Assembly: GCF_963921235.1 (NCBI RefSeq)
Contig: NC_086097.1
Coordinates: forward strand, 97,528,001-97,592,000
Direction of reading: 5' to 3'
DNA: 64,000 bases
Source: Mobula hypostoma
Taxonomy: Eukaryota
Of this stretch, positions 3,601 through 58,508 are shown one piece after another (within the stretch, counting starts at the first letter, position 1; every line of letters starts with the position of its first letter). The notes under the pieces are model-generated. The model was not told the origin of the DNA. It searched no databases and saw nothing but the letters and a program-made list of their open reading frames with translations. The position numbers and the translations under genes are program-made.

Positions 3601-3709
3601 ATGTGTATGTGGAATGGACAAGGATAACTGCCATTAATTGTACAGCCCAGAAACAGACCAATGTCATGCCAACCATGATTCTTCTCCATAAAACTGTAAA
3701 TATATGATA

Positions 3710-5640: not shown

Positions 5641-5683
5641 AGGAGAGACTGGCAAAGTGGGAAGGGCTGTTGGCGGGGTAGGT

Positions 5684-7093: not shown

Positions 7094-7505
7094 TGTAACA
7101 CTTGGGGCTATCGACTCACGTTTGTCTAGGGGAAACCCTGTCCGCCCGCCAAACCGTGTCTCACGTTTGCGTAGATGCTGTGTAATGCACCCCGGTACAA
7201 ACTCACACATACAGCTAGAATAACAAGACTTCTGTTGGTTAGTTCTTCCGTTATCTATAGTTATAACCCAAACATTTCAGCTACAAAGATCAATTAGCAT
7301 TACAGAGAAGCCATTTTATTATTAGCAGTTAACAGTTACAATTACAGTTAATATCACTGAGAACCCTACATGTTTCCCCCACCGAATTTAGTCATGCCCT
7401 CATGACGTTCAGATAATTCGCCAACCCTTCCTGCAAAGCACAGAGCCCAATCCAAGTGCAGAAAGCAGTGACATGACTGCCCAAAACAGTAGAGATCACC
7501 AGGCA

Positions 7506-10500: not shown

Positions 10501-12100
10501 CTCCATCTCACAAGATTATGTGCCCAACATAGCTAACAGACATCTTGCAGAACTGGCACTTGTCCAGGGAGAGTTTTAACCCTTCCTCCTTCAGTCAGCT
10601 TAGCACCTTCAGTAGTCTCGCTTTGTGTTCTTCCAAGGTGGATCCAAATGCTATCAAGTCATCCAAATACACCAACACTTTGAGCAAATTCATATCCTTC
10701 ACCACCTTCTGTGTCCTTCTGGAAAGTGGCAGGGGCTCCCAATATGCCCTGGGGCATCCTTTCAAACTGGAAAATCCCAGAGGGCATATAAAGGCCATCT
10801 TCTCTTCGTTGGCCTCACTCATTGGGATCTGGTAGTATCCACTCCTCAAATCCAGCACACTAAGCCACTTTGCCCCACTCAGGCCAGCGCGTCTTCGACC
10901 TTCGGTACCGTATACTGGTCAGGGTGGTGCGCCGGTTCAGGGTCCTGTGGTCCACGCACATGCGTACTTTGCGGTTCTTCTTCCGGGCCACTACTATTGG
11001 GGACGCATAAGGGCTTCAGGATTCCAAGGTGATCCCAGCTTCCTTCAACTGACTCAAGTGCTGCCGCACATCTTCCGCATCTGCAAGGGCCAGTGGCCGC
11101 AACTTGTCTCTAAACGGGGTGTCCTCAGTCACCCGGATGGTGTGGCGAGTGCTCTTGGAACAACCCACATCAAACTCGCCAAGGGAAAAAACATCTTCCA
11201 GCTTCAACATCATCTCCACCAACCTTTGCTTCCAACCTGGTGGCACAGGCGAGTCCCCAAAGTTAAAGGCCTCAGCAGTCAGCTTTCCTCTGTTTTCCAA
11301 TCGTTCCCCCCCACCAGACAGGCCTCACGGGGGGTGCTCGACATTACCATCACCGGGAGCAAATGAGCCAGAGGCACCCCTCTGTGAAAGGTGATTTTTC
11401 TCTTCGTGGTGTTCCTGACAACCACTGCCATCCTGTTCACCTGTACCACCAAGGGCCTCTGCACTTCGGGCCTCACCAGCATCCCAGACGGAAATCGCGA
11501 CTCCCCCTCGAGGTCTTCTGGGGCGTCCACTAAAAGGGCCTTGCCATCAGGCACTCAAGGAAATCTGGGGGTTCCCATCACTCTCGCCACTTTCCCGGAT
11601 CTCATTACCTTGGGCTTCGACTGGTGCACCACACAGTTCCTCGTTTAAATTCAGTATCCGACCCAGGGTGGCTCTGCACTTCTCAAAAGCAGCCGGAAAC
11701 ATTGGGTGCACAGCCCAGGTCTCAAAAGTTCTCATCCGCCCTCTCCTGACAGGTCCCCCATGAGCCTCCACACCACAGGGGTGTTGGTCCCCACCAGAAT
11801 TGACGCACCACCCATCTCAACCGGTTCCGGACAAACCAGCACTAACGTCTCCAGAACTTCAGACATCCCACCTTGGCTTCTGAAAACTCCAGCCTCACAG
11901 ACAAATACCTGTCATACGGATAATCACCAGCACTGACACCCCAAATCTCCAGTGCACTGAATGGGGTCAAGGGCAAATGCTTTAAATACTGGTTGTAAAA
12001 CGAACAGTATAGTAATGTGACCTGCGACTCCGTATCGAGTATGGCTTTAGCATAGATTCCCTCTATCCGTACCGACACGCTGGATCTGGGTCCCACTAAT
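7506..12100 (-). pseudogene. Gypsy pol remnant (protease, RT, RNase H, integrase), frameshifted
   Basis: AILDTESQVT (protease), LDLRSGYYQIPM and YLDDL (RT), LHDDSG..FYWP..YCKSCIGC and IHSDQGRDFES (integrase) in broken ORFs. Confidence 0.9.
9268..9820 (-). mobile_element. Rex1/Babar-like LINE 3' fragment nested in Gypsy pol
   Basis: CWGSRLRVADTNRINKLIHKASDVVG..ILDNVSHPLH motif; short tandem (catagt) tail next to a minus-strand AATAAA near 9283. Confidence 0.75.
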
Positions 12101-12187
12101 CCTTCTGGAATCGGATTTTTTTTTCTTTCGGGGGTTCCTTAGTACATCGCTAGGGACGTGTTCCCCCAGAGACACCAGGCTGTTCCC

Positions 12188-13450
12188 TCACTGGGTCTCC
12201 TCTAAGTTTCCCGACACCTCTCCCTGCTTGGATGCCTGAGGACTCGCCCTCCGAGGGGCTCCCTGCTGCTCACATTCCCGCCGGAAGTAGCCCTCTTCCC
12301 CACAGTTATAGCACCCGCTACCAGCCACCCCTCCTCTCGCAGCCCTCTGTGTTGTCCGTCCCCCGGGGGGGGGGGGTACCTTCCCTACCGACCCCTCAGT
12401 TCTCAGCTCCACCACCACCTCTTTTATCAATTTCCAGGTGGAGCCGGCTCTGCCCATTTCCCCACCAGGGGCTGCAACTGAGGATTTCACCCCACTGATA
12501 AGAGTCCTCCCTTGACCTAACGAGTTCTCATCCCCCCTCGCGTGTCTGATCAGCTGAACGAACGTCAGAGGGGGGTGCATTTTATAGGACTGCCGGAGAC
12601 TCCAAGCAATCTTGTCCTCAGCCTGGGCACCTCTAGTTAACTGATCCGTCCTTAACTGATCCATCTGTTCAGCCCGAATGACCCCCCCCCCCCGGCGCCG
12701 CAGCCCCCCAAGCCGTCTCTCTAGCCAAAAAAGGTACGCGGAGATCTTCTCACCCTTCTCCTGACGCATGTTTTGAAACTCCCCGAGGAGCTCCCGGTCA
12801 ACCCAAAAGCACTTTCCAAAGCCTGCAGGTAGTCATTCAGAGTGACCGAAGGCTGGTTAACCTTTACGTCTCACACTACCCCAGCCGCCACTCACTTAAC
12901 AACTGCGACATTTGCTCTACCCATGTCTCATAATCCTCTTCACCTTCGGGGATGGGTGTTATCCCCGAGAAAATTCTTATCTTCTGGAGGGGCCCCTCTA
13001 TCCTTCTCACGAGGGAGGTAATTGCAGATGCCAACTCGGAACTCTCTCCTTTCGCTGGGGAATGGGAACTAACCAAATTTTCAAAATCTGACCACACCTT
13101 CCCTTCATCCCTCAGTACCAAGAGAATTTGTTCCCTAAGATCCCCACCCTCATCTGCTGGTGACTCAGCTTACTGAACTCTGGCCCCCCCCCCTGACAAT
13201 TTGCAAGATCCATGGTCCCGCCTCCCCTGGGACGCCAATCTCCTCCGGCAACTTTGCTCCTGTCTGTACCTGCCTCAAAATCAAAGTTTCACGATACAAT
13301 TTCCACTTTGCCAACCGCTTTAACCGTACTCAAACCTCGAAGTAACACATCATCCAATACATACACTGGTCTCCACCCCCCAAACACGCACGCCTTGCTC
13401 ACTGGCACGCTCACAGCTGCATACCATCGCCGAAATGCAGCGGCTGCCAT
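12188..13450 (-). pseudogene. Gypsy gag remnant, PNMA/Ma-like capsid with zinc knuckle
   Basis: IRIFSGITPIPEGEEDYETWVEQ, QEKGEKISAYLFWLE and CYNCGEEGYFRREC (CCHC with H>Y); several frameshifts. Confidence 0.85.
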
Positions 13451-13498
13451 CACCACTCTACTTTAAACAGTGTGGTCACACAGCATCCACAGAGTACA

Positions 13499-13516
13499 AT
13501 CCCGGACGAGCCCCCA
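13499..13516 (-). other. Primer-binding site complementary to tRNA-Pro 3' end
   Basis: Minus strand TGGGGGCTCGTCCGGGAT, 4 nt inside the 5' LTR. Confidence 0.9.
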
Positions 13517-13805
13517 CAAATGTAATGCTCAGGGCTATCAACTCAAGTTTGTCTAGGGGAAACCCCGTCCGCTCGCCAAACCATGTCTCACGTTTGCGTA
13601 GATGCTGTGTAATGCACCCCAGTACAAACTCACACATACAGAGAGAATAACAAGACTTCCATTGGTTAGTTCCTCTGTTATCTATTGTTATAACCCAAAT
13701 ATTTCAGCTACAAAGAACATTACCTCATCAGTTAAAATTACAGAGAAGCCATCTTATTATTAGCAGTTAACAGTTGCCATTACAGTTAATATTACTCAGA
13801 ACCCT

Positions 13806-14119
13806 GTGTTGGCGCGTGGCCAAGTGGTTAAGGCATTTGTCTAGTGATCTGAAGGTGGCTAGTTTGAGCCTTGGCTGAGGCCGCGTGTTATGTCCTCGAG
13901 CAAGGCACTTAACCACACATTGCTCTGCGACGACACTGGTGCCAAGCTGTATGGGTGCTAATGCCCTTCCCTTGGACAGCATTGGTGGCGTGGAGAGGGG
14001 AGACTTGCAGCATGGGCAACTGCCAGTCTTCCATACAACCTTGCCCAGGCCTGCGCCCTGGAAACCTTCCAAGGCGCAAATCCATAGCCTCATGAGACTA
14101 ACAGATGCCTGAAACTGAT
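13806..14119 (+). mobile_element. tRNA-derived SINE inserted in the end of the Gypsy LTR
   Basis: A-box TGGCCAAGTGG and B-box-like GTTTGAGCC; TSD AACCCT at 13800-13805 and 14120-14125; sister copy at 20779-21085. Confidence 0.85.
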
Positions 14120-14221
14120 AACCCTACACTGGTATCTATCTGTAATACCATGGGCTTTTACCTCATTTTGCAACCTCATTTGTCAAAGGCCATTTGAAAA
14201 TCCAAGTAAATAACATCCCAA

Positions 14222-15370
14222 AAGACCATAAGATTATAAGATATAGGAGCAGAACTAGGCTATTTGGCCCATTGAGACTGCTGCACCATTACATCATGGC
14301 TGATCTATTTTCCCTCTCAGTCCTAATCTCCTGCCTTCCCCCTGTGTACCTTCATACCCTGACCAATCGAAAATCTGTCAAACTCTGCCTGAAATATACA
14401 TAAAGATTTGGCCTCTACAGCTGCCTGTGGCAACAAATTCCACAGATTCACCACTAGCTAAAGAAATTCCTCCTCATCTCCATTCTAAAAGGATGCCTCT
14501 CTGTTCTGAGGCTGAATCCTCTGGTCTTTGATTCTCCCACCATAGGAAACATCTTCTCCACATCCACTTTATCAAGGCCTTTCACCATTCGTTAGGATTC
14601 AATTAGGTTGCCTCTCCCCCCACCATTCCTCTGAGTTCCAGTGAGTACAGGTCCAGAGCCATCAAACACTCTTCATATGACAAGCCATTGAATCCTAGAA
14701 TCATTTTTGTGAACCTTCTTTGAACCCTCTGTAGTTTCATCACATCCTTTGCAAGATAAGGGGCCCCAAAACTGCTCAGAGTACTCAAGTGAGGCCTCAC
14801 CAGCGCTTCATGAAGTCTCAACATTACATCCTTGCTTTTATATTCCAGCCCTCTTGAAATGAACATTAACATTGCATTTGCCTTCCTCACCACAGACTCA
14901 ACCTGCAAGTTAACCTTTAGGGAATCCTGCACAAGGACCCCCAAGTCCTTTTGTGCCTCACAGATTTTTATTTTCTCTCCATTTAGAAAATGATCAACCC
15001 TTTCATTTCTTCTACCAAATTGCATGACCATACACTTCCTGACACTGCATTTCATCTACAACTTCGCCCATTCTCCAAATTTAAGTCCTTCTGTAGCCTC
15101 TCTACTGCCTCAAATCTAGCTGCCCTTCCACCTACAGTATCTTCATATCGTCTGCAAACTTTGCAACAAAGCTATTAATTCCATCATCCAAATGATTGAC
15201 GTATAATGTATAAAGAATTGGCCCCAACACAGATTCACGTGGAACACCACTAGTTAGTGGCAGCCAACCAGAAAAGGCTCCCTTTGCCTCCTGCCAATCA
15301 GCCACTGCTTAATCCATGCTGGAATTTTTCCCGTAATACCATGGGCTCGTAGCTTGTTAAGCAGCCTCTG
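14222..15370 (-). mobile_element. CR1 LINE 3' fragment
   Basis: KCMVMQFGRRN..KDLGVLV..LVRPHL..LQRVQRRFTKMI motifs; short tandem tail near 14222-14245. Confidence 0.88.
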
Positions 15371-15454
15371 ACTCTCCTTTGCCTATCCTAATTGAAACTT
15401 CCTCAGAGAATTCCACTGACACATAACAGATGGGTTGGTGGGCGATTCAATAAT

Positions 15455-15760
15455 TAGGGTGGCGCAGGAGCACAGGAGTTGGTATAACACGATAACAGCG
15501 GCAACAATCGACGATTGGGATCCAGTTATCGCCACTGTCTGCAAGGAGTTTATACATTCTCCCCATGTCTGTGTGGGTTTTCTCCAGGTGCTGTGATTTC
15601 CGCTCACATTCCAAAGACACACAGAGTGGGGTTAGTAAGTTGTGGGCATCCTATGTTGGTGCTGGAAGCATTAGACACTTGTGGGCTGCTCAAGCACTTG
15701 TTCAGACTGTGTTGGTCACTGATGTACATGTTACACTTCACTATGTTTCGATGTACATGT
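15455..15760 (+). mobile_element. V-SINE (HE1-like) copy; further copies near 18100-18220(-), 30810-30920(-), 34470-34730(+), 46870-47040(-), 55625-55900(+)
   Basis: Central domain TTCTCCCCATGTCTGTGTGGGTTTTCTCCAGGTGCT...CCAAAGAC recurs in these copies. Confidence 0.7.
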
Positions 15761-16379
15761 GACATTGTACATCCAGTGGCCACTGTATTAGATGCTATTG
15801 ACAGTGTGCACTAGCTATTGAAGCTTGGATGCACTAAAGAAGATGATCCATTGCATCACTCACAGCAGTTAAGTTAACATGTGAACTCTCAGAATACTTT
15901 GCTGCAGGAAAAATATATCCAGCCTATCCATTTGTATCATTCAAACCCTCCACGTGAACTAAGCACAGCAAAGTTATGAATTTTTTTCACTCTCTCCAGT
16001 CAACTCCCAACTTACTTACCGTGTTGTGCTCTGAACTACACACAATACTCCAAACACAGCTAACCAATGTTTTATACAAGTGTCACATGATGTCTGAATT
16101 CCTGCACCTCTCCACTGGCAGATAACTGCCTACTTGTACCTCCAGATCCTTGCTATTTACTATCCTGCCCCAAATTAACTTTGCAATTTACACGTCAAAT
16201 TCTATCTGCCACTCCCTTGCCCATTTTCCCAGCTCCTCTATATCCTGTTGTAACTGTAGACACGTTATTCACTGTTAACTCCACCACCAGTTTTTTTTAA
16301 ATCATCTTCAAACTTGCTAATTGTGCCATCTGCATGCTCATCCAAATCATTAATACTATATATATGTGTACAGTGTATA

Positions 16380-17438
16380 CAGTGGGATGCTAAAGTTTGG
16401 GCACCCCTAGTCAAAATTTCTGTTACTGTGGATAGCTAAGCGAGTAAAAGATGAACTGATTTCCAAAAGGCATAAAGTTAAAAATGACACGTTTCTTTAA
16501 TATTTTAAGCATGAAAATGTTTTTTATTTCCATCTTTTACAGTTTCAAAATAACAAAAAAGGAAAAGGGCCCAAAGCAAAAGTTTGGGCACCCTGCATGG
16601 CAGTACTTAGTAACAACCCCTTTGGCAAATATCACAGCTTGTAAACGCTTTTTGTAGCCAGCTAAGAGTCTTTCAATTCTTGTTTGGGGGATTTTCACCC
16701 ATTCTTCCTTGCAAAAGGCTTCTAGTTCTGTGAGATTCTTGGGCTGTCTTGCATGCACTGCTCTTTTGAGGTCTATCCACAGATTCTCAATGATGTTTAG
16801 GTCAGGGGACTGTGAGGGCCATGGCAAAACCTTCAGCTTGCGCCTCTTGAGGTAGTCCATTGTGGATTTTGAGGTGTGTTTAGATTCATTATCCTGTTGT
16901 GGAAGCCATCTTCTTTTCATCTTCAGCTTTTTTACAGACGGTGCGATGTTTGCTTCCAGAATTTGATGGTATTTAATTGAATTCATTCTTCCCTCTACCA
17001 GTGAAATGTTCCCCGTGCCACTGGCTGCAACACAAGCCCAAAGCATGATTGATTCACCCCTGTGCTTAACAGTTGGAGAGGGGTTCTTTTCATGAAATTC
17101 TGCACCCTTTTTTCTCCAAACATGCCTTTGCTCATTGTGGCCAAAAAGTTCTATTCAAGAGGTTCAAAGGAACATCTAAACAAGCCTGATGCATTTTGGA
17201 AACAAGTCCTGTGGACTGATGCAGTTAAAATAGAACCTTTTGGCCACAATGAGCAAAGGCATGTTTGGAGAAAAAAGGGTGCAGAATTTCATGAAAAGAA
17301 CCCCTCTCCAACTGTTAAGCATGGGGGTGGATCAATCATGCTTTGGGCTTGTGTTGCAGCCAGAATCAGTTCATTTTTTACTTAGCTATTCACAGTAACA
17401 GAAATTTTGACCGGGGTGACCAAACTTTTGCATGCCAC

Positions 17439-17440
<2 letters not shown>
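16380..17440 (-). mobile_element. Tc1-like transposon, internally deleted and partly inverted
   Basis: TA|CAGTGG...CCACTG|TA ends; transposase C-terminus QQDNESKH..SPDLNIIENLW at 16537-17046; same family as 26134-27749. Confidence 0.92.
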
Positions 17441-17479
<39 letters not shown>

Positions 17480-17566
17480 ATATATGTATGTATATGTATA
17501 TATGTGTGTGTGTGTGTGTGTATGTGTGTATATATGTGTGTGTGTGTGTATATATATGTGTATAAA

Positions 17567-17597
<31 letters not shown>

Positions 17598-17613
17598 TTG
17601 TTTATGTATATAT
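17441..17613. repeat. (TG)n/(TA)n compound microsatellite
   Basis: Direct read; it starts at the TA target of the Tc1 element. Confidence 0.97.
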
Positions 17614-18814
17614 GATAAACAACAGTGAAGCCTGTACCAGTCTTTGGGGCACACCACTGGTCACAGGCCTTCGGACTGAGTGACAGTTCCCAACTACGAT
17701 CCTCTGTCTCCTTTTTTTTATTTCTAGTTTCTACCCATAAAGCCTGACTGAAATCCTGTCTTGGTACTGAGGTGATGTTATCCTGAATCAGTGATGCAAG
17801 CAACCCCCTTTCTTACGTATGCCTCTGGTATGCCAGAAACACCTTAGAACTTTGAGCCTTTTCTGTTGTCCACAATATTTAAATTTTTTTTGCAAATTAT
17901 GTTTTATTGCCTTAAACTATTCTTTTTAAGATGAAGAATGAAGCCATTTAGCTCATCAGGTTAATTTCATTCCCAGCAGTCCCATACCCTTCTAATTTCT
18001 CTGTAGCCCTACAACTCATACTCTGACTTGACAGTCATTTCCCCTCTTGCTGCTCATGTAAACTCAAGATAATTTATTGTTGTCAGTTAACCTATCTTAT
18101 CCCTAGGATGTAGGAGAAAGCAGGGGCACCCTGAGGATTCCCACGTGGTTGTGGGAAGAAAGTGTGAACCCCACACCGAGGTCAGGATGAAATCCTGTTT
18201 CCTGAAGCTGTGAGGTTCCCATTGGCCATGGACCAGTGTGATTAAGCAAGGGGTCTATGGACCCCAGGTTGGGAACCCCTGCCTGGAGTTCACCATCCCA
18301 TCCCATCCCTAGAAATATTTTACTTCTATTATTTTTCTTCATAATTTAGGGCTTATTTGACTGTAACTATAATTTTAAAGTGTGCAAAGAATTCTCAGAT
18401 GTATAGTGCAAAACAGGGAGGTCCATTGCACCATTCCTAGTTTTTATACCAAGCTGAACTTTTCTCATCAAAGGACATGAGAGACCTGAAATATAGTGGT
18501 TATTGATTCCATGGATACTATCTGGTCTGCTCACTACAGCCAACATTTTACTTTTATTTCTGATGTACCCTATCATTGTTCGGAGACCAATATTACTTAA
18601 TTATGGGCCAGCCCTCCTGCATCTGAAACAGATGGTTGTGGGTCCAAGTATAGATCAAAAATCTTGAGCATGCAAATTTGGCTGATGCTCCAGTAAAGGA
18701 CTGAAGGAGAGCGACATTATCAGAGATAACATAATTTGCATAAGACATTAAATAGTGGCACAGTTTTTTTGGATTTTTTATGTAAAAGATCCATTGGTCT
18801 TATTTTAAAAAAAG

Positions 18815-19375
18815 GAGTCCTGGAGGTCCTGCTTTTCATCTTTCTACTTAACTCCTTAATTCCTTTTCCTACTATGTAATTGGTAGTAATATGTACCACG
18901 ACTTCTGGCTGCTCACTCCACCCCCCGCTCCCTTTAGAATGCTTGGACCCAATCCGAGACATCCCTGATCCCGGTATCTGGGAGGCAAGATACCATCCAG
19001 GTGTCTCTTACACATTCACAGAATCTCCTGTCTGCTTCTCTAACTATGGAATCCCCCCCATCCCCCTCTGAACCTCAGAACTAGACTCAGTGACAGAGAC
19101 CTGGTCGCCGTGGCTTCCCCTGGTAGGTTGTTACCCCACCCTACAGTATCCAGAGTGGTGTACCTATTATTGGGGGGATACAGCCATGGGGGTACTTTGC
19201 ATTGGGTGCCTCTTCCCTTTCCCTCTCCTGACAGTCACCCAGGTACCTGCCTCCAACAATTTAGGGGTAACTATCTCCCTGTAGTTCCTATCTGTCACTT
19301 CCTCATTCTCCCATATGAGCCGAAGGTCATTAAGCTGCAACTCCAGTTCTTAACATGGTCTGTAAAAAGTTTCTG
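18815..19375 (-). mobile_element. CR1 ORF1 (SGNH esterase) fragment
   Basis: EQPEVVVHITTN motif (GxND block) in ORF 18720-18962. Confidence 0.7.
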
Positions 19376-20778
19376 AGGGCAAGATAATAGTGCCATTACA
19401 TGCAGTACTATGCAAAACTCTTAGGCATGTACTTGTAGCTAGGGTGCCTGAGACATTTGTACAGTTAATATTTGTTTGTTTGTGTGTGTGTGTTTATTTA
19501 TTTATTTAGTTTTTAAAAAGTATATTTTTTTATATGGTGCTAAATTGTTTGAAACTTTCCAAGCTTGAAACCTTCCACAATCAAGTTGCCAACATTTGAA
19601 AAAGTCTTGTCCGATGGATTCTTGTCAATGATCAAACTGTAGGACAGTCTATGTAAAGCACAATTTTCTGACATTAGCTGTAAGATTAACCCATTCCTAA
19701 CTTAACTCAGGTCATTAGCTTAGTTTGACACAACATGTTGGACTAAAGGGGGCCTGTTCCTGTGCTGAATTAATCTATGTAGTCTGAACTCAAGTCAACT
19801 CTCATAATGTGAACTAATATCCTGTAATCCTCCTATTTGATCAATCTCTTAAAGAATCACTGGTAATGAAGTGAAAAGCTCAAGTCTCTTAGTTTTCTAC
19901 GTATTGCTGTCCTTTCATATAAAAGACATTAACTTGTGTTTCAACTCTGTATTCTCTGTAAAGTTTGATTTACCCAGTCTTCCATTCAAAATGATAATAT
20001 TGCCAAAGAACCCATTTTTAAAAAAGACTGTCGTATACCCTATGTGCAAACGAATTTTGCAAACAATAAAAATAAATAATGTTCAGAACTGAAGTTCACA
20101 AAAGTGACTCCTCTTCAGTCATGAAGCCAGTCATCGCTGCGCCGATCCAGGAGCCCGTTATTTGCAGGCCACGCCTCAGTTCAGCGCAGCAGCGAGTAAA
20201 CCTCACTGAGCAACAAGCTGAACCCTGCATCATCCCTTGCCTCCAGCCCCGACACCCTGACCTTTTCAGTCTGGTCTAGCACTTAAATTGGCCAAACCCA
20301 ACTTTTCCAATTCAGCTGAGTGCTTAAATTAGTCAAACCTATGATTGTCTTTGCATATTCTTAAGCAAAATAGTATAATTTTCTGTTAAAGCTGAGTTTC
20401 ATGTGAATAAAGCTAAGTTTAATGGAATAGCAAGCACAGCTCGAGCCAAAGTACAGATTAAGTTTAATACATTTAATAAACTGGGACATTAAGCATAATT
20501 ATTTCTGTTATTTAAATGCAAGTTTCACATATTGAAAAAAGCTACATAAACGCACCGTGGCCCATAATTGTTTGACCACTTTCGTAGTACAATCCCCACC
20601 ATTTGTAGATGTTTTGCCATGTCACTGTGATTTGTATGGCTTTGACAATAACCAGTATAACATAGAATTAAAAATTACCCGACAGGTCAGGCAGCATCTC
20701 TGTGAAAAGCGAAGTAATGTTTTGGGTTGATTATCCTTCATTAGAAAATTTTATGACCTTTCATCGCTGATATATTAA

Positions 20779-25693: not shown

Positions 25694-26133
25694 GTGAGTG
25701 CGCCTTGGGGTTAGATGTTTGTTCTGGTTAAAAATGGACTGGTTAATGCAAACTGTTAAAATGTGGGGAAAGTAATATTTTTTAAACTCAGTAATCACAC
25801 AGGTTAAAAGCTAAATCATGTCTTTTTAAAACTTGAGATAAATGCTGATAGTAGATTCTGGGATTTAACAGCAACATGCTTTAGATTCAGTTTACCTGTT
25901 GAACTGTTTTTCCTCAGGTTCACTGTTTTAAACATCTAATTTCTAATTAGCTTCAGTCACGTGAATTTGTGTGACCATAAGACACTTTACCATGCTCAGA
26001 ACAAACTTATTTTTAAATAGTGCTGGTTGTGTGTGTTTGTGTTCAAAAAGCAATAGGTTCCGTTTAGTGTCAGAGAAATGTATACAATATACATCCTGAA
26101 ATTCTTCTTCTTCAGCAATTTTTGTCACTGATA

Positions 26134-27749
26134 CAGTGGCATGCAAAAGTTTGGGCACCCCAGTCAAAAATTCTGTTACTGTGAATAGCCGAGCAAGTAA
26201 AAGATGACCTGATTTCCAAAAGGCATAAAGTTAAAGATGACACATTTCTTTAATATTTTAAGCAAAATTACTTCTTTATTTCCATCTTTTACAATTTCAA
26301 AATAACAAAAAAGGAAAAGGGCCCAAAACAAAAGTTTGGGCATCCTGCATGGTCAGTACTTAATATTACCCCCTTTGGCAAGTATCACAGCTTGTAAACG
26401 CTTTCTGTAGTCAGCTAAGAATCTTTCAATTCTTATTTGGGGGATTTTTGCCCATTCTTCCTTGCAAAGGGCATCTACTTCTGAGAGATTCTTGAGCCGT
26501 CTTGCATGCACTGCCCTTTTGAGGTCTATCCACAGGTTCTCAATGATGTTTAGGTCAGGGGACTGTGAGGGCCATGGCAAAACCTTCAGTCTGCGCCTCT
26601 TCAGGTAGTCCATTGTGGATTTTGAGATGTGTTTAGGATCATTATCCTGTTGTAGAAGCCATCCTCTTTTCATCTTCAGCTTTTTTACCGACGGTGTGAT
26701 GTTTGCTTCCAGAATTTGCTGGTATTTAATTGAATTCATTCTTCCCTCTACCAGTGAAATGTTCCCCGTGCTACTGGCTGCAACACAAGCCCAAAGCATG
26801 ATTGATCCACCCCCATGCTTAAGTTGGAGAGGTGTTCTTTTCATGAAATTCTGTACCCTTTTTTCTCCAAACATAACTTTGCTCATTGTGGCCAAAAATT
26901 TCTATTTTAACTTCATCAGTCCACAGGACTTGTTTCCAAAATGCATCAGGCTTGTTTAGATGTTCCTTTGCAAACTTCTGATGCTGAATTTTATGGTGAA
27001 GACACAGGAAAGGTTTTCTTCTGATGACTCTTCCAGAAGGTCATATTTGTGCAGGTGTCACTGCACAGTAGAACAGTGCACCACCACTCCAGAGTCTGCT
27101 AAATCTTCCTGAAGGTCTTTTGCAGTCAAATGGGGGTTTTGATTTGCCTTTCTAACAATCCTATGAGTAGTTATCTCGAAAGCTTTCTTGGTCTTCAAGA
27201 CCTCAGCTTGACCTCCACCATCCCTGTTAACTGCCATTTCTTAATTACATTACAAACTGAGGAAACAGCTACCTGAAACCACTGTGCTGTCTTCTTATAG
27301 CTTTCTCCTGCTTTGTGGGCATCATTTATTTTAATTTTCAGAGTGCTAGGCAGCTGCTCAGAGGAGCCCATGGCTGCTGATTGTTGGGACAAGGTTTGAG
27401 GAGTCAGGGTGTTTATAAAGCTTTGAAATTTGCATCACCTGGTCTTTCCCAATAATGACTGTGAACAAGCCATAGCCCTAACAAGCTAATTAAGGTCTGA
27501 GACCTTGGTAAAAGTTATGAGAGCTCAAATCTCTTGGGGTGCCCAAACTTTTGCATGGTGCTCCTTTCCTTTTTTTCCACTCTAAAATTGTACAAAACAA
27601 CAATAATACACTAATCTTGCTTAAAATGTTGAAAAGAATGTTTCATTTTTAACCTTATGACTTTTGGAGATCAGTTCATCTTCTACTCACTTAACTATTC
27701 ACCGTAACAGAAATTTTGGCTGAGGTGCCCAACCTTTTGCATGCCACTG
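26134..27749 (-). mobile_element. Full-length (1.6 kb) IR/DR-type Tc1 transposon with inactivated transposase (about 27371-26353)
   Basis: TA TSD; ~210-bp TIRs with internal repeats AAGTTTGGGCA; MGSSEQLPSTLK N-terminus; QQDNDPKH..SPDLNIIE catalytic region; stop at 27195 and frameshifts. Confidence 0.95.
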
Positions 27750-38957: not shown

Positions 38958-39138
38958 GCACACAAAATGCTAGAGAAACTCAGCAGGTCAGCAGCATGTA
39001 TGGAAAAGAGTACCTCTGAAGGGCCACGGCCCGAAATGTCGACTGTACTCTTTTCCATAGATGTTGCCTGGCCTGAGTTTCTCCAGTATTTTGTTTTTAG
39101 TGCTTGGACTTCCAGGATTTGCAGATTTTCTCTTGTTT
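38958..39138 (+). mobile_element. Short Penelope pLTR insertion with inverted head
   Basis: Imperfect TSD CTGATGGGATTAT (38945-38957) / CTGATGGGAGTTAT (39139-39152). Confidence 0.72.
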
Positions 39139-44400: not shown

Positions 44401-45445
44401 CTTGCTGAGTATATCCAATGTGAAATGTAACCACCAGAGTACAAAGGAGGCTGATGTTCCCTATGTTCAAACCAGACTAAGGGGCCAAATACCCTATCCT
44501 TACTTCCACTTCGTTATGTTGTTAAAGATGGTAGTATGCTTAAGGGAAGAGAGGGAATAGAAACTGCTGTCTGCAAGGAAACTAGTAGAGAATGTAACTC
44601 ACTGTGCAAACTTAATATTTCAGGAACACAGTTCTCTGATTACTAAAATGTTTAATTTTGTTCTCTTCCAAAAACTTTTTGTCAGAGTTGAGGACTACCC
44701 TAGGGTTAGCAGGTACTAGGGCAGGCTTGACTCCATGCTGCCTCCCAGGACCCTGGGTTATTACTGCTTCCCTCTGCTATCCCCAAGTCTGATTTTAGCA
44801 CATTGCTCAAAGGGGGAGGGCAAGATTAGGCAATGCTGCCACCTCTGGAGCGAGGAGGTATATGGAGGGAATTGCAGAGATTAGATAGCTGATGAATGTC
44901 TGTCTCAGATATAGTTAGAACACGGAACAGTACAACACAGGAATAGGCCTTTCAGTCTATAATGTAATGTCTGTGCTGAGCATGATGCTAAATTAAACTA
45001 AATTTCTTTTGCTTGTACATAATTACAAATATTCCTCAATTCCCTACATGTTCCTGCATATTTCCAGCCTTTTAAATGTCACCAAAGTATCTGCTTCCAC
45101 CATTCTCTCCCCCCTCCCTCCCACCCCCAAAGCAAGCCATTGCAGGCACCTACCCATTTTCTTTATAAACAAAAACACCTTGCTCTACGCACCTCCATTA
45201 AATTTCTGCCTCTAATTGCTGGAGGAAGCCCACTTCATAGAGGTTCATTGGATTAGGGAAGATGATGTATTTGAAACCAGGGTAATTCTTTGACAGAGTG
45301 GGGCTATTGAATCCTGGTATAAGTTCATCGGTACTTCATGTTTCTGTAGGCACTCATGACTTTATTCAGCAATGTTTTAAGATTTTTGTGGCGCTCTTTG
45401 GTCTGCATAACAAATCACATAACTGTAACCTCTTCTTTGTTCTAG

Positions 45446-45539
45446 GCCTCGTTTGGGAGCTATGCTGCACAGGGTCATTGGTGTCGGCATCCTGTATTTA
45501 ATTTTCTCAGCAATAGAAGGCAATCTTCGAGTTACTGAA
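45446..45539 (+). CDS. TMEM87A: TMEM87A exon 11 ([31 protein letters not shown])
   Basis: ttctag| ... GAA|gtaagt (U2 donor), 94 nt, ends in phase 0. Confidence 0.95.
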
Positions 45540-46059
45540 GTAAGTAGCAGAAGTTCAAGGAGCTAGCCCATTGAGAGAAGATACCACAGGTTCTGCTGAA
45601 GTGTGTTAAACTATTTTCCTTATCCAAAAGAACAATCATTGATTTAATTTTTCAGTGTTCTTGGTTACTCTTGTCTGTGTGATAACTTCATTATTACTGT
45701 TGTTAGGCCCTCTGAGCCAATTGCTCAGTTTTCTCTCAGACGTTGCTAAATCAGAGATTACTAAGCAATGTCCTCACCAGGCACTATGCTGTGTGTGTTC
45801 TTTTAATATTTGCAGCATTGCACTTGCTGTGCAAATCAAACATCTGGGTGATTGGGGTTTTTTAAGTCAATTTTGCCCTCAGTTGCTTTATTAGTAACCC
45901 GTATGATGTGATGTAGGATGGCAACCATAGAGACATATAGAATGGAAACAAGCTGTTCAGCATACCAAGTACACGTTGACCAGCAGCCACCCACTTACAG
46001 TAATCCTCCATCATGATAGTTCAAAGATTTGGATAAGGGTATTGATAGGAGCGACAGAT

Positions 46060-46676
46060 CATAAACACAAGATTCTGCTGATACTGAAAATCCAGAGCAA
46101 CACACACAAAATGCTGGAGGGGCTCAGCAGGTCAGGCAGCATCCGTGAAGATGAATAAACAGTCAACGTTTCGGGTCGAGACCCTTCCTCGGGGCTGGAA
46201 AGAAAGGGGGAAGACATCAGAATAAAAAGGTGGGGGGAGAAGAGGGATAGTTAGACGGTGATTGGTGAAACCAGGCGCATGGGAATGTAACAAAACAGGG
46301 CGGGTTTTAGTTAAACTGAGAAAGAGTAGAGGTGAAGTGTACCTACCAACATGGAATGATAGACCCAAAGGCCAGTTTGTCATGTTTTGACCAGCAATAT
46401 AGTGTTCAGTAGATCCCTGATGGTGAAGATTCGACATTCATTCCACTACAGCTTATCTTTCCCAGCCACCTGGCTTCACCTATCGCCTTCTAACTGTACT
46501 CCGTCCCTCCTCTTCTCCCCCCCCCCCCACTCCACCGCACCTTTTTAATCTGATGTCTCTTCCACCCCTTCCTTTCCAATCCTAATGAAGGGTCTCAGCT
46601 TGAAACGTTGACTGTTTATTCATCCCCATAGATGCTGCCTTACCTGCTGAGTTCCTCCAGCATTTTGTGTGTGTTG
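46060..46676. mobile_element. Inverted Penelope pLTR pair enclosing a captured copy of local intron sequence
   Basis: Minus-strand pLTR at about 46060-46280, plus-strand pLTR at about 46450-46676, both with mutated hammerhead cores; the middle (46289-46446) is the reverse complement of 47325-47482. Confidence 0.8.
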
Positions 46677-47282
46677 GTTAGGAGAGATTTAGATGGACAT
46701 GGTCCAAACGTGACCAAATGGGGTAGGTTGGGAAGGGTAACTTGGGCCAAAAGGCCTGTTCCCATGTTGTATTATTCTGACTCTGTATTAATCTAATTTT
46801 TTAAATCTATCTACGTTCTCATCAGTCCCTTTCCACCCCCTCTCCTATAGATTCTATACGATAGGAAAATTTAAGCGGCCAAATGATGAACCAACCCACA
46901 TTTTTAAGATGTGGGAATAAACTAAAGAAACCAGCTGAAACCCGATCAGTCAGAAGCACACAGACAACACTGGAGGTCAAGAATGAACCTGGGTCTCTGG
47001 TGCTAAGAGGTTTTGGCTCTCCCAGCTGTGCCACTGTGACAGAAGGAAAACAGGGTCCTCACCAACCCATTTACACTCATCCCAATTTCTGTTTTTACTC
47101 TTGTCTATATTCCCACCCTGGTGATTCTGCAACTCTCACACTAGGGGCAAATTACAGCAGTCAGTTAACCTACCAGCTTGTGCCTTTGCAACACAGGAAG
47201 AAACTGGTGCATCAGGGGGATACCTGTGGAGTCACTCACAGTGTATACAAGCTGTGCCCTGAACTTTAGCAAGCGCTCATGT

Positions 47283-47333
47283 TTCCCTGACTGAGAATCA
47301 AACACGAGCTGCAGTGGTGAGGATGTGGAATAA
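47283..47333 (-). pseudogene. Decayed tRNA-Glu-like 3' half (or tRNA-derived SINE head)
   Basis: Minus strand ATTCCACATCCTCACCACTGCAGCTCGTGTTTGATTCTCAGTCAGGGAA resembles the vertebrate tRNA-Glu(CTC) 3' portion. Confidence 0.5.
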
Positions 47334-47492
47334 GTGTTGCATCCTCACCATCAGCGATCTACTGAACACTTTATTGCTGGTCAAAAAATGACAAACTGGC
47401 CTTTGGGTCCATCATTCCATGTTGGTAGGTACACTTCACTTCTAATCTTTCTCAGTTTAACTAAAATTGGCCCTGTTTTGTTCCTGATTTAG

Positions 47493-47564
47493 GCCCCACT
47501 TGTTACCTTGGCTCTTATAGGGAACATCAGCCTTTCAATCATCGACTCATGTATACTCTGGTGG
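47493..47564 (+). CDS. TMEM87A: TMEM87A alternative exon 12a (APLVTLALIGNISLSIIDSCILWW)
   Basis: tttag| acceptor, 72 nt open hydrophobic frame homologous to exon 12b, followed by U12 donor ATATCCTTT at 47565-47573. Confidence 0.85.
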
Positions 47565-48871
47565 ATATCCTTTATATTATACTCAAATATATTGGCTTTT
47601 CTTTTTGTTACATTGATTCTTCTCTTTAAACCCAGTTGTGATTTGCACCCACATGGGAGAAAATCGGTGCTATTGAGTTCTGTTGTTCTTATCCATTTAT
47701 TTTCTATTTGCAATTGGCTGCTAATTAAAGCAGTGAATAGCTGCAGTAAATAAACTGGAAAGACCTAAATTGGATTATTAGTTAATCTAATTGTGGTAGG
47801 ATTTTTAGAATAGGTTTTAGTGCTAGAAGGTTTGAAAATGTTTGAGTTCTGATCCTTATTTGATTTGTTGGGGTACGTGATCAGGTTCTCTTGAGTTTCT
47901 TTCCACGGCTGAATCTTGCCTCATTTACCACATGAATCCTAAACACTTGGATGAGGCAGCAGAAGCCAATTACATCTGTAGAACCATTATCCTGCTAGCT
48001 TCAGGAGAAACATGGAAGCATGTTACGAAGCTGAATGAAGCACTTGAATCTCAAATCACTGTAGATGACGGAAACCTAAAAGAGTCAACATTTTGGAAGG
48101 GGAAAGTTTGTCAGAAATGGAAAGGAGAAAATGCAGGGTAGTTTCAAGATTGACAGAGATAGGACAAAAGGAATATTCTGATGCAATGAGTGATTGAAAT
48201 TAGAGCTATAAGGCATTTCGTCTTGAGGAAGAAAGCTCGGATTGTTGCAGCAGGGTGCGGGTTAGACATTTGCTGTCAGTGGCTGTCGAATTATGAATTC
48301 TGCCAATAAAGGATGGAAAGTCTGATGGAAGCTACAAAGCTCTTGACTAACTGCTTATTTTCTGGAATGCTGGTGGAAAATAAATGAAAGACGTTGACAA
48401 ATCCTGATCTTTAATACACTTGAGAGCAGAAACAAAATGGGTACAGTTTCTGCTGACTGGTGAGTTGGTATCTGCCATATAAACAGCTGTTGAATCTGTG
48501 ATTCCATGGGCTGGCTTTCTGATTCTGATTCTAAATGGATGTTGGCCATATTCAACGGAACACGGTTTCCATTGCGGAGTAGTCTGTGTTATGTGATGTT
48601 CGCTTTGCTGCCTGTGAGAATCATGATTTAAAATCAATTTTAATTACTTCAACCCAAATTGTCCATCACCAGTAAAATAGAAACACTTGGATGTCAATGC
48701 GTTGAAGTTAATTGTAGACCCAAGCTAATACAATGATTCTCACAGTTCAGTCAACACATCCCACTGCTGCTTCATTATGAATTCCTAATGAAACTGGAAG
48801 TCATTATTTTCTTTCTCTCTCTTTCTTTCTTTCTCTATTTCACCTGATGCTATCCTTTCCTTCTTTTTCAG

Positions 48872-48940
48872 GAGAATTTCGACCTGGCCCTTCTGGCTTT
48901 TATCCCTCTGGCTGTTCTCGACACTGCTCTCTGCTGGTGG
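48872..48940 (+). CDS. TMEM87A: TMEM87A alternative exon 12b (ENFDLALLAFIPLAVLDTALCWW)
   Basis: ttctttttcag| acceptor, 69 nt, matches human AQTDLASLAFIPLAFLDTALCWW; U12 donor ATATCCTTT at 48941-48949. Confidence 0.95.
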
Positions 48941-50315
48941 ATATCCTTTCGGGATCTGTTTTTTTTCCAGCAAAAAGGATTTTCTGACCTGTTTTCTATT
49001 TATTCCTTGATCAAGAATGGAATATTTTGACAAAATCTGCTTTCTAAGCATATAGTTTATAAACCCTTGGATTTAATCTTTCCCTTTTTTTTGTTTTGGA
49101 AGTGGCTATGAAATTGGGGTTAATCCATCCGAATTTGGGTTTAGTAGTAGAATAGTTTCACAAGTGTACTTAACAAAAGATCTAGTTTGTATATGTGGTT
49201 TGAGAAGGATTTGGCAAAATGATTACGTTCTCAGTCACAACTCTGGAGTATCACAACCCAACCCAACCATGGCAAATAATCCAGGCTTTAAGCCTGAGGG
49301 CATAAATTTTGTAATGTCCAACACTAATCTAATGCATGTAGATGATTTCAGTTAGCCTAATTGGACAAGTTACAGAGACCTTGCCATACTTCAGCAACCA
49401 TGTTCACTGAGTGAAGTCAGCTTTTGCAAGAATCTGTTCAGCATTGAGCGGGGAACAATGTCATTTGGGAGATGAATGCACCGTACATACAGTAGATGTG
49501 ATGGTGTTTAGCAGTCACTATCACGACCTGAAATTTGGGAATTGGTTTATTGTTGTCACATGTATTAAGGTACAGTGAAAAGGTTGTACAGATCAAATCA
49601 TTACACAGTGCATTGAGGTAAAACAATAGCACATTGCAGAATAACATGCAATAGCTGCCTAGAAAGTGCTGTGCAGTGAGATGAGAAGGTGCAAGACCAT
49701 AATAAGATAGACTGTGAGGTCAAGAATCCATCTTGTCTTACTAGAGAACTATTCGATAGTCTTACAATACCAGCATAGAAGTTGTCCTTGAGCCTGGTGG
49801 TACATGCTTTCAAGCTTTTATATGTTCTGCCTGATAGGATGCGGGGGGGTGGGGGGGGAGGCGGGATGGTGGAGAAGAGAGAATGTCTGGGGTGAGTGGA
49901 GTCTTTGATTATGCTGGCTTCCTTACAGAGGCAGCGAGGAGTGTCGCTTATGGTTCCTGTGATGTGCTGAGTTGTATCTGCAACTCAGTGCAATTTCTTC
50001 ACAGGTAGAGCAATTACCATGCCAAGCCCTGATGCATCTGGATAGGATGCTTTCTATGGTCCATTGACAAAAATTGGTAAGGATCAACGAGGATTTGCTG
50101 AATTTCTTTATCCTCCTGAGGATCTAGAGGCTTTGGTAGGCTTTCATGACTCTGGACAGTTTTTGTTTGGAAATCAAGTTGAGCAAGGTGATGCACAATT
50201 GCTGTTGTACTGTTCTTTAACCTTAGACCTGATTTATATCTCTGAATTTATTTCCATGTGTGACACACTTGATGCTCCATTTTATGTTCCATCTGTTTTC
50301 TTTAACCATTGACAC
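48941..50315 (+). other. U12-type (minor spliceosome) AT-AC intron; 47565-50315 when exon 12a is used
   Basis: 5' ATATCCTTT; branch site TTCTTTAAC at 50298-50306 (one mismatch to TTCCTTAAC); terminal AC at 50314-50315; joining restores [13 protein letters not shown]. Confidence 0.93.
49530..50150 (-). mobile_element. Old Rex1/L2-like LINE 3' remnant
   Basis: KACTTRLKDNFY motif and degenerate RT C-terminal sequence. Confidence 0.55.
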
Positions 50316-50424
50316 ATTTTTATCAGCTTGACCCAAACAATGAAGATGTTAAAACTGAGAAGGAATGTTGTGAAGCTGTCCTTATACAGACATTTCACGA
50401 ACACACTTATCTTCGCTGTCATAG
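50316..50424 (+). CDS. TMEM87A: TMEM87A exon 13 ([36 protein letters not shown])
   Basis: Near-identical to human; AC acceptor, G|gtaagt donor, 109 nt. Confidence 0.95.
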
Positions 50425-50759
50425 GTAAGTTTAAAAATTGCTCATGCTTGGTGTTTCTGGGTGGCCTAACTACACACTATCGAACCACTAAATCTCTCAT
50501 TTTAGGGTATCTCCGGCATGGACTGACTAGTTGAATAGAAAGAGCTACACCAGTGAAACATAGGTTATGTCAGTCGAGGTATCAAGACTTGGCTGCCAGT
50601 TGTGAGGGCAAGGGCAATTTGCTCACTGATGGGACAGTTCTAGGGCATTTGCAAGTAGGAAGAAAAAGATGCAATTGCAAGTTAGCTGAGAAGGTTAGGA
50701 AGTTTTGGGGTCAGGTTTAAGAAGCTTAAAGATAGATGAACATGGCAAGTAAAATATAT

Positions 50760-55620: not shown

Positions 55621-56099
55621 CGTAGTATAATCGTTAGTACAACACTTTACAGTACAGGTGACCTGGGTTCAATTCCCTCCGCTGCCTATAAGGAATTGTA
55701 TGTTCTCCTGTGAAAGCATGGGTTTTCTCCGGGTGCTCTGGTTTCCTCCCACAGCCCAAAGACATACCGGTTGGTAGGTTAATTGGTCATTGTAAATTGT
55801 CCTGTGATTGGGCTAGGATTAAATCAGGGGATTGCTGGGTAGTGTGGCTCAAAAGTCCTGAAGGGCTACTTTTATACTCTATCTCAATAAATAAAATAAA
55901 GCATCTACAACTTTGTTTTGGGTTATGGGCTGACTTCATCTGAGTAAATGAATCCTATTGCAGAATATGCCACTGGTGTTGCTGATTTACTTAAGAATGG
56001 CATGGTACAAACTGAAAGAGGATTGGATATATTACTGCAACACACATCAAAGTTGCTGGTGAATGCAGCAGGCCAGGCAGCATCTCTAGGAAGAGGTGC

Positions 56100-56135
56100 A
56101 GTCGACGTTTCAGGCCGAGACCCTTCGTCAGGACT
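56100..56135 (-). ncRNA. Minimal type I hammerhead ribozyme motif
   Basis: Minus strand AGTC-CTGACGA-AGGGTCTCGGCCT-GAAA-CGTC-GACT. Confidence 0.75.
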
Positions 56136-58200
56136 AACTGAAGGAAGAGTGAGTAAGGGATTTGAAAGTGGGAGGGGGAGGGGGAGATCCAAAATGATAG
56201 GAGAAGACAGGAGGGGGAGGGATGGAGCCAAGAGCTGGACAGGTGATAGGCAAAAGGGATACGAGAGGATCATGGGACAGGAGGTCCGGGGAGAAAGACA
56301 AGTGGGGGGGGAACCAGAGGATGGGCAAGGGGTATATTCAGAGGGACAGAGGGAGAAAAAGGAGAGTGAGAGAAAGAATGTGTGTATAAAAATAAGTAAC
56401 AGATGGGTTACAAGGGGGAGGTGGGGCATTAGCGGAAGTTTGAGAAGTCGATGTTCATGCCATCAGGTTGGAGGCTACCCAGACGGAATATAAGGTGTTG
56501 TTCCTCCAACCTGAGTGTGGCTTCATCTTTACAGTAGAGGAGGCCGTGGATAGACATGTCAGAATGGGAATGGGATGTGGAATTAAAATGTGTGGCCACT
56601 GGGAGATCCTGCTTTCTCTGGCGGACAGAGCGTAGGTGTTCAGCAAAGCGGTCTCCCAGTCTGCGTCGGGTCTCGCCAATATATAAAAGGCCACATCGGG
56701 AGCACCGGACGCAGTATATCACCCCAGCCAACTCACAGGTGAAGTGTTGCCTCACCTGGAAGGACTGTTTGGGGCCCTGAATGGTGGTAAGGGAGGAAGT
56801 GTAAGGGCATGTGTAGCACTTGTTCCGCTTACACGGATAAGTGTCAGGAGGGAGATCAGTGGGGAGGGATGGGGGGGACGAATGGACAAGGGAGTTGCGT
56901 AGGGAGCGATCCCTGCAGAATGCAGGGGGGGGGAGGGAAAGATGTGCTTAGTGGTGGGATCCCGTTGGAGGTGGCAGAAGTTACGGAGAATAATATGTTG
57001 GACCTGGAGGCTGGTGGGGTGGTAGGTGAGGACCAGGGGAACCCTATTCCTAGTGGGGTGGCGGGAGGATAGAGTGAGAGCAGATGTTCGTGAAGTGGGG
57101 GAGATGCGTTTAAGAACAGAGTTGATAGTGGAGGAAGGGAAGTCCCTTTCTTTTAAAAAAAGGAAGACATCTCCCTCGTCCTAGAATGAAAAGCCTCATC
57201 CTGAGAGCAGATGCGGCGGAGACGGAGGAATTGCGAGAAGGGGATGGCGTTTTTGCAAGAGACAGGGTGAGAAGAGGAATAGTCCAGATCGCTGTGAGAG
57301 TCAGTAGGCTTATAGTAGACATCAGTGGATAAGCTGTCTCCAGAGACAGAGACAGAAAGATCTAGAAAGGGGAGGGAGGTGTCGGAAAAGGACCAGGTAA
57401 ACTTGAGGGCAGGGTGAAAGTTGGAGGCAAAGTTAATAAAGTCAACGAGCTCTGCATGCGTGCTGGAAGCAGAGCCAATGCAGTCGTTGATGTAGCGAAG
57501 GAAAAGTGGGGGACAGATACCAGAATAGGCTCAGAACAGATTGTTCACAAAGCCAACGAAAAGGCAGGCATAGCTAGGACCCATACGGGTACCCATAGCT
57601 ACACCTTTAGTTTGGAGGAAGTGGGAGGAGCCAAAGGAGAAATTATTAAGAGTAAGGACTAATTCCGCTAGACGGAGCAGAGTGGTGGTAGAGGGGAACT
57701 GATTAGGTCTGGAATCCAAAAATTATTAAGAGTAAGGACTAATTAAAAACACTCAGGTTGGAGGAACAACACCTTATCTTCCGTCTGGGTAGCCTCCAAC
57801 CTGATGGCATGAACATCACACTCAGGTTGGAGGAACAACGCCTTATATTCCGTCTGGGTAGCCTCCAACCTGATGGCATGAACATCGACTTCTCTAACTT
57901 CTGCTAATGCCCCACCTCCCCCTCGTACCCCATCTGTTACTTAATTTTATACACACATTCTTTCTCTCACTCTCCTTTTTCTCCCTCTGTCCCTCTGAAT
58001 ATACCCCTTGCCCATCCTCTGGGTGCCCCCCCCCCCGTCTTTCTTCCCGGACCTCCTGTCCCATGATCCTCTCGTATCCCTTTTGCCAATCACCTGTCCA
58101 GCTCTTGGCTCCATCCCTCCCCCTCCTGTCTTCTCCTATCATTTTGGATCTCCCCCTCCCCCTCCAACTTTCAAATCCCTTACTCACTCTTCCTTCAGTT

Positions 58201-58236
58201 AGTCCTGACGAAGGGTCTCGGCCTGAAACATCGACT
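58201..58236 (+). ncRNA. Hammerhead motif with G>A change (GAAACATC; ACGT palindrome lost)
   Basis: AGTC-CTGACGA-AGGGTCTCGGCCT-GAAA-CATC-GACT. Confidence 0.6.
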
Positions 58237-58508
58237 GCACCTCTTCCTAGAGATGCTGCCTGGCCTGCTGCGTTCACCAGCAACTTTTATGTGTGTTGCT
58301 TGAATTTCCAGCATCTGCAGAATTCCTGTTGTTTGGATATATTACTGATTCCTTTTCAGTTCTATTCACATTAAAAATTAACTCTGTAATCCATTCCCGT
58401 TTCTAAGGAGATGCTTGTAAAAAGATTTTGCTAGGTAGATATTGGGGCAGGATGTCCTCTTGAAGAATACTTTGTTGATTTATGATGTTCACAATTCCTT
58501 TTCTACAG

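Follow-up and report, generated by a model that had tools for sequence, protein, structure and literature searches.

An inverted copy of a TMEM87A splice acceptor region enclosed in an old Penelope-like insertion in Mobula hypostoma

The TMEM87A exon pair and its use

The analyzed window is a stretch of 64,000 nt from Mobula hypostoma (contig NC_086097.1, positions 97,528,001 to 97,592,000). The host gene at the locus is TMEM87A, and the exon from 50316 on matches human TMEM87A 378-409 (E 9e-14). The gene parts are listed below, in which the exon number 12 is the label of a sequence-only reading that preceded this analysis.

45446..45539, plus strand: TMEM87A exon upstream of the pair, with GT donor (AG/GTAAGT ends, open frame; weak Pfam GOST_TM match, E 0.049)
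47493..47564, plus strand: exon 12a, 72 nt, with U2-type AG acceptor, then the U12 donor ATATCCTTT at 47565 (spliced joint in runs X9, X19, and X10)
48872..48940, plus strand: exon 12b, 69 nt, with U2-type AG acceptor, then the U12 donor ATATCCTTT at 48941
50298..50315, plus strand: U12 branch point TTCTTTAAC and AC acceptor, common to 12a and 12b (AT..AC joint)
50316..50424, plus strand: downstream TMEM87A exon (human TMEM87A 378-409; Pfam GOST_TM, E 1.2e-10; contig in X19)

Each exon of the pair carries a U2 acceptor and a U12 donor, and a single U12 branch point and acceptor is shared. The motifs ATATCCTTT and TTCTTTAAC are taken to be U12 donor and branch point from their consensus. A second U12-like branch motif TTCTTTAAC was seen at 50213-50221, 85 nt upstream of the used one, and is followed by AGAC. 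Exon 12b matches human TMEM87A residues 357-377 and has contigs in X19 and X10. Exon 12a gave no match in PDB and Pfam. In four relatives, exon 12a showed substitutions only, with no indel or stop listed. The acceptor of 12a is weaker than that of 12b, i.e., 13 vs 16 pyrimidines of 17. No Rfam family matched 45400-50500 with an E value of up to 1.

U2/U12 interlocked mutually exclusive exons have already been described for TMEM87a/b and MAPK8/9 (PMC8329584, PMC6717393, consulted in part). The pair found here resembles them, i.e., two U2 acceptors, two U12 donors, one U12 acceptor, and both exons used. Unlike the TMEM87 pairs described in the consulted parts, it belongs to a fish-type vertebrate, and 12a is taken as the ortholog of the upstream exon of the mouse by position only. 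According to the consulted part of PMC6071210, exon exclusivity follows, without RNA structure, from a U12 donor that faces a U2 acceptor. Because the U12 donor faces a U2 acceptor here as well, the choice between 12a and 12b is either-or, and therefore no RNA selector is needed for their exclusivity.

Seven runs were guessed to be RNA, and the contigs of four of them were aligned to 45400-50450. The spliced joint from 47564 to 50316 (AT..AC) was found in X9 and X19 of M. hypostoma and in X10 of a close relative, organism B. As the spliced joints show, these three runs contain RNA. Contigs with spliced 12a were present in two of the three M. hypostoma runs and in the one run of the close relative, and X13 covers no exon. 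In X10, the exon 45446-45539 was joined to 12a and to 12b. Both exons are used, and no joint between 12a and 12b was among the joints listed. In the intron after 12b, a single A>G difference was seen at 49386 in one X9 contig (depth 4.9), which may be an allele, an error, or editing.

The contig depth of 12a vs 12b was 17.2 vs 34.5 in X19 (12a share 0.33), 143.7 vs 62 in X10 (0.70), and 86.3 vs approximately 88 in X9 (0.50, with the 12b value back-calculated from the bin mean). Exon 12a accounts for about a third to two thirds of the summed depth, which indicates substantial use and not an exact ratio, as expression is poorly reflected by contig depth.

The inverted host copy and the Penelope-like insertion

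By blastn inside the window, 46289-46446 is a gapless reverse complement of 47325-47482 (14 mismatches in 158 positions, 91.1% identity, E 2.8e-58), and 878 nt lie between the arms. Coordinates and mismatch count agree with the sequence-only reading, with the correction that the copy runs on. It extends 7 nt more, to 46453, past an 11-nt gap between two GTGG repeats, and this last part corresponds to 47307-47313. Identical letters are found at this junction in organism D, a relative described below. The full copy 46289-46453 is 165 nt, from the 176-nt template 47307-47482. The template arm ends 10 nt upstream of the exon starting at 47493. It holds CTAAT (47442-47446) and TTAAC (47457-47461), which are candidate branch points by motif alone, and most of the pyrimidine tract, just as had been described before. 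G-U pairs make up 5 of the 14 copy/template mismatches, as expected by chance (P 0.42), i.e., these mismatches are not enriched in G-U.

The 3.48-Gb genome was searched for the arm, with very common words skipped. Both of the two candidates were the two arms themselves, so the objection that the arm belongs to a high-copy repeat did not apply. A TIR transposon over 46289-47482 was considered and rejected, i.e., it would have two copies only, one end within the Penelope pair, and the other end at the splice acceptor.

In the template, a small hairpin of about 15 bp was noticed at 47313-47350. The copy skips 11 nt of the 5' arm of this hairpin and ends just past it, as if the copying polymerase had slipped and stopped there. 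The local fold of 47300-47500 was not stronger than that of shuffled sequence (z -0.93).

The copy sits centrally in a single head-to-head Penelope-like insertion, in which the 3' ends of the arms point outward. The parts of the insertion and the template are as follows, where C to F are relatives described below.

46044..46054, no strand: left copy of the target-site duplication, 11 nt, decayed (9/11 match to 46677-46687)
46057..46290, minus strand: left Penelope-like terminal-repeat arm, 3' end outward, with extra tail (outer end approximate, 46055-46072)
46289..46453, minus strand: inverted host copy with 11-nt gap (template 47307-47482; junctions also in organisms D and F)
46453..46676, plus strand: right Penelope-like arm, 3' end outward, without tail (same element end base as the left arm)
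46677..46687, no strand: right copy of the target-site duplication (pairs with 46044-46054)
47307..47482, plus strand: host template, 3' portion of the intron, including most of the pyrimidine tract (by sequence; present in C, E, and F, and in D from 47364 on)

The flanks of the copy are a high-copy repeat with 3340 candidates in the genome. Of these, 40 were scored, and the 39 besides the query were 81-85% alike. The arm repeat was matched at all 29 other loci compared. The earlier proposal that the copy lies between two inverted halves of Penelope pLTRs was thus borne out, with the right arm now ending at approximately 46676. Over 104 nt, the left arm shares 73% identity (E 1e-6) with the tail of a GIY-YIG ORF at 56432-56947. 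This ORF passes the Pfam GIY-YIG cut-off and represents a related subfamily, not that of the focal arms. The focal Penelope copy consists of terminal repeats only.

Both arms are inverted and 5'-truncated, and the extra tail is found on the left arm only. They end at the identical element base, with a microhomology to the copy of 2 nt on the left and 1 nt on the right. The arms differ from each other at 27 of 188 gap-free columns (14%). The 11-nt target duplication is the best of three lengths tried, and its 9/11 match is equalled by 0.4% of random pairs (1% at 12 nt, 4% at 14 nt). The insert is single-copy, has a nearby match, and shows 1-2 nt of microhomology at the seams, as is found in locally templated insertions.

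Some other elements were noticed. Stretches like a decayed minimal hammerhead core are present in both arms (46165-46196 and 46580-46610), with no match in Rfam. The likeness is to the motif CTGATGA...GAAA, which is altered in both arms. A younger head-to-head Penelope insertion lies at 56027-58340, with a remnant of a GIY-YIG ORF and arms 96% alike. Further palindromes in the window are 17021-17363 and 38962-39094. At 16377-17155 and 26131-26906, copies 92% alike carry Tc1/mariner-like transposase frames, a family suggested by their motifs.

The background of such structures was surveyed in 1.8 Mb from nine hand-picked regions plus the window; repeats make up about half of the sampled genome. 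The survey held 447 Penelope segments, with 82 head-to-head pairs (3 in the window, and some in one region being segmental duplicates) and 32 tail-to-tail pairs. A local copy as spacer was found in the focal pair only, and in 0 of the 79 head-to-head pairs outside the window. Inverted hits were filtered for arms of 50-600 nt, 100-5000 nt apart, and at least 85% alike. One of seven non-repeat inverted hits (58 bp, 83%) was below this filter and was left out of the genome search. Six other inverted hits passed, and five were searched genome-wide. Three of the hits have two copies, i.e., 152 bp, 89% alike, 746 nt apart; 162 bp, 90%, 890 nt; and 64 bp, 95%, 494 nt. The fourth true case is a local duplication of an old repeat (188 bp, 97%, 600 nt). 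The remaining two were one dispersed repeat and one element that is Tc1-like by look.

The four true local inverted duplications are C2:59131519-59132559, C5:117050450-117051659, C22:79194574-79195195, and C22:79133541-79134515. Their arms measure 64-188 bp, are 89-97% alike, and lie 494-890 nt from each other. The ends are sharp, no Penelope arm adjoins, and all four come from the first 1.0 Mb of the survey. The rate is 2.2 per Mb (95% interval 0.6-5.7), i.e., some 2,000-20,000 per genome and approximately 0.0002-0.002 per splice acceptor. Chance hits on some acceptors are expected. U2/U12 pairs are few and a hit on one is improbable, but it was noticed post hoc. As arm length and spacing are near those of the focal case, one repair or replication process may have made them.

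Age, drift, and predicted folding of the copy

Contigs of four relatives (C, D, E, and F, with one run each), i.e., four of the five other organisms listed, were aligned to 47270-47600. Organism F has a 42-nt piece of the copy that includes the left Penelope junction. In organism D, a contig spans the right Penelope junction and includes 126 nt or more of the copy. Because copy junctions are present in both, the copy predates the splits from D and F. No copy piece was found in C and E, whose contigs stop short of the insertion site. In run X10 of organism B, the bin of the copy is covered, and the contig enters the right arm by approximately 26 nt, which is under the 31-nt bridging threshold; the copy is likely present in B. 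Judged from these junctions, the insertion and the copy are old and were kept in at least three lineages (M. hypostoma as A, D, and F).

Over 47364-47450, the copies of M. hypostoma and D differ at 8-10 of 87 nt and the templates at 4-7 of 87; these are ranges with 2-4 differences per contig unlisted and 31 nt compared by eye from a loose contig end. By this comparison, drift in the copy is no slower than in the template, without sign of constraint. The CTAAT motif is mismatched by the copy at 47445 in M. hypostoma and at 47442 and 47444 in D, and no change of the motif is listed in the templates of the four relatives. In D and E, a further insertion, later than the copy, interrupts the template and has an overlap of 5 nt (47364-47368). 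One end of this insertion resembles a shark-type LINE/SINE tail.

At 47407 and 47434, the copy equals the template within D and within M. hypostoma, yet the lineages differ (two of the four template differences). The chance of this co-variation is approximately 0.005-0.014, assuming a parallel-change rate of 0.03-0.05. At 47391, the M. hypostoma template matches both copies, and the four other templates differ. The pattern at the three sites is likely gene conversion between the inverted arms, which are 0.9 kb apart. One short conversion tract per lineage would be the simplest account of the co-varying sites. Sites 47407 and 47434 may also be compensatory.

The sequence-only reading had claimed that the two arms can form a long pre-mRNA duplex that could mask the 12a splice signals. 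Such a duplex, with 148 pairs possible, would cover these signals. Folds were predicted with no proteins and no pseudoknots. The predicted duplex energies were -250.7 kcal/mol for copy and template and -287.5 kcal/mol for the two Penelope arms, and the two duplexes cross. The lowest-energy fold of 46051-47600 has 179 nt paired between the arms and 0 nt paired between copy and host. With the copy-template duplex imposed, the fold energy, 569 kcal/mol in size, worsens by 5.3 kcal/mol, a difference well within the model error. Nascent folds to 46700, 47300, 47400, and 47500 had 171-179 arm pairs and 0 copy pairs in all. When the left arm was removed in silico, the copy-template duplex became the best fold with 149 pairs.

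In these predictions, the Penelope arm hairpin would be complete approximately 640 nt before the template is transcribed and would trap the copy in its loop. Winding a strand 14 turns round a closed loop would not be easy. This competing Penelope-Penelope hairpin had been overlooked, and the masking claim is poorly supported, as the best fold and all nascent folds favor the hairpin. In the contigs of four runs, 0 A>G or T>C differences in the arms were among the rows listed, at a cover of 0-4 in the copy bin and with 47259-47427 uncovered. The depths of 12a exclude a strong masking of this exon. A partial bias toward 12b may be present and is compatible with the depths, which all come from copy-bearing or likely copy-bearing species.

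Origin of the copy and its meaning

We hold with moderate confidence that the locus is an old head-to-head Penelope-like insertion enclosing a 165-nt host copy, which was likely patched in during arm joining and likely has little effect on splicing. Both cut target ends would have primed reverse transcription, and both cDNAs would have stopped at the same element base. One cDNA end would have caught host sequence approximately 1 kb away via 2 nt of microhomology. The template would have been the plus strand, either as DNA or as the pre-mRNA of the gene itself. After 176 nt were copied, with an 11-nt slip at the small template hairpin, the product would have been joined to the other end. In the pre-mRNA, the Penelope arms would pair first with the copy held in the loop, so the 12a signals would be mostly free. 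The anatomy, the single copy, the age beyond the split from two distant relatives, and the continued splicing of 12a were observed at the locus. The copy is likely a harmless by-product, i.e., a passenger, and not a splicing switch.

It was proposed before that the Penelope reverse transcriptase switched template onto nearby host sequence. The outline of this proposal stands, as single-copy host DNA lies at the arm junction within one target duplication; the copy may have been made by the reverse transcriptase during insertion or by later repair. The absence of a local copy in all 79 other pairs and the four inverted duplications away from Penelope arms count against a Penelope-driven origin. 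Such a duplication can therefore arise without Penelope.

In the strongest competing account, to which we give a real but clearly lower probability, the Penelope palindrome came first, its center broke later, and ordinary DNA repair added an inverted patch from approximately 1 kb away; the outcome would be equally neutral. The same four cases in 1.8 Mb show that this route exists, and the absence of a local copy from all 79 other head-to-head pairs fits it. The Penelope arms also diverge more (27/188, 14%) than copy and template (14/158, 9%), but this age gap is within noise because the template is partly constrained and maybe converted. The two arms stop at one and the same base without loss, an outcome that the repair of a break need not produce. 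A center of 5 nt or less is seen in 5 of 38 alignable short-gap pairs, and the copy already abuts the Penelope arm in both relatives showing it. That the pairing of the inverted arms is by chance, between copies of a dispersed repeat, or that the structure is an assembly artefact is extremely improbable. About half of the sampled genome is repeat, and two of the six other inverted hits were a Tc1-like element and a dispersed repeat; however, the genome search returned only the two focal arms, these diverge by 9%, and the same junctions occur in independent runs of D and F.

As for function, the earlier claim of a transposon-made selector biasing the choice toward 12b is not upheld, i.e., U2/U12 interlocking suffices, 12a is spliced where the copy is present, and the copy shows no sign of constraint. 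A modified form, which we consider unlikely, is that in some transcripts, when the Penelope hairpin is opened by helicase, editing, or fast elongation, the branch point and pyrimidine tract of 12a are bound by the copy, which shifts the ratio to 12b. The 148-pair duplex is within 5.3 kcal/mol of the best fold and is the best fold without the left arm. The copy is old, was kept in A, D, and F, and co-varies with the template at two sites, and 12a has the weaker acceptor. Inverted Alu pairs are reported to change splicing (PMC2533698, PMC10901737, in the parts consulted). However, all nascent folds have the Penelope hairpin forming first, and 12a holds about a third to two thirds of the depth in three runs. 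The copy drifts at the template rate or faster and mismatches CTAAT in both species seen, the template is split in D and E, and the co-variation fits one short conversion tract. In the consulted parts of PMC8329584 and PMC6071210, exclusivity is obtained without a selector.

More improbable still is a two-state RNA switch made by one Penelope insertion, in which arm-arm pairing frees 12a and copy-host pairing hides its branch point. On this reading, the two folds are mutually exclusive and near-equal in energy, the ancient U2/U12 choice in a gene for a Golgi channel would be tuned when the Penelope hairpin is edited or unwound, and the co-varying sites would be compensatory.

The preferred reading, a neutral patch made during arm joining, has parallels in known systems. 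In Adineta vaga, endonuclease-bearing Penelope elements were described with pLTRs in inverted orientation, a tail on one side, a target duplication, and host DNA caught between the pLTRs (PMC3846280; also PMC8969392). As far as these partly consulted sources tell, the rotifer head-to-head insertions share with the focal one the inverted 5'-truncated arms, the tail on one arm, the single target duplication, and unique host DNA between the arms. Unlike them, the captured DNA is local (approximately 1 kb away in the same intron), inverted, and not a spreading cargo, whereas the rotifer spacers are given there without a named local source. Templated genomic insertions and local inversions occur at LINE-1 junctions, for which template switching of the reverse transcriptase or end joining was proposed (PMC11702581, in its consulted part). 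The focal copy is likewise a short genomic stretch inserted at a retrotransposon junction. In contrast to those patches, which come from human L1 in cell models, it is a germline-fixed Penelope event.

Like the inverted Alu pairs (PMC2533698; TBXT, PMC10901737), the focal arms form a transposon-made intronic inverted repeat near an alternative exon that could pair. In the consulted parts of these papers, the effects were demonstrated by editing or mutants, and the focal case is known from sequence and predicted folds. Unlike inverted Alu and the docking and selector structures in the consulted part of PMC6071210, the partner of the copy is the acceptor region of the exon itself, and a competing hairpin shields the copy. 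A literature search, with most subscription journals outside it, found no report of a local copy that Penelope had captured across a splice acceptor.

The locus is an example of a retroelement junction patched with neighboring host DNA. In addition, it documents the TMEM87A U2/U12 exon pair, backed by RNA, in a fish-type vertebrate. If the two-state switch were true, retroelements could create an antisense element against a gene's own splice site in one event. It would then also give a handle on what chooses between U2/U12 interlocked exons, whose regulators are still unknown according to the consulted part of PMC8329584.
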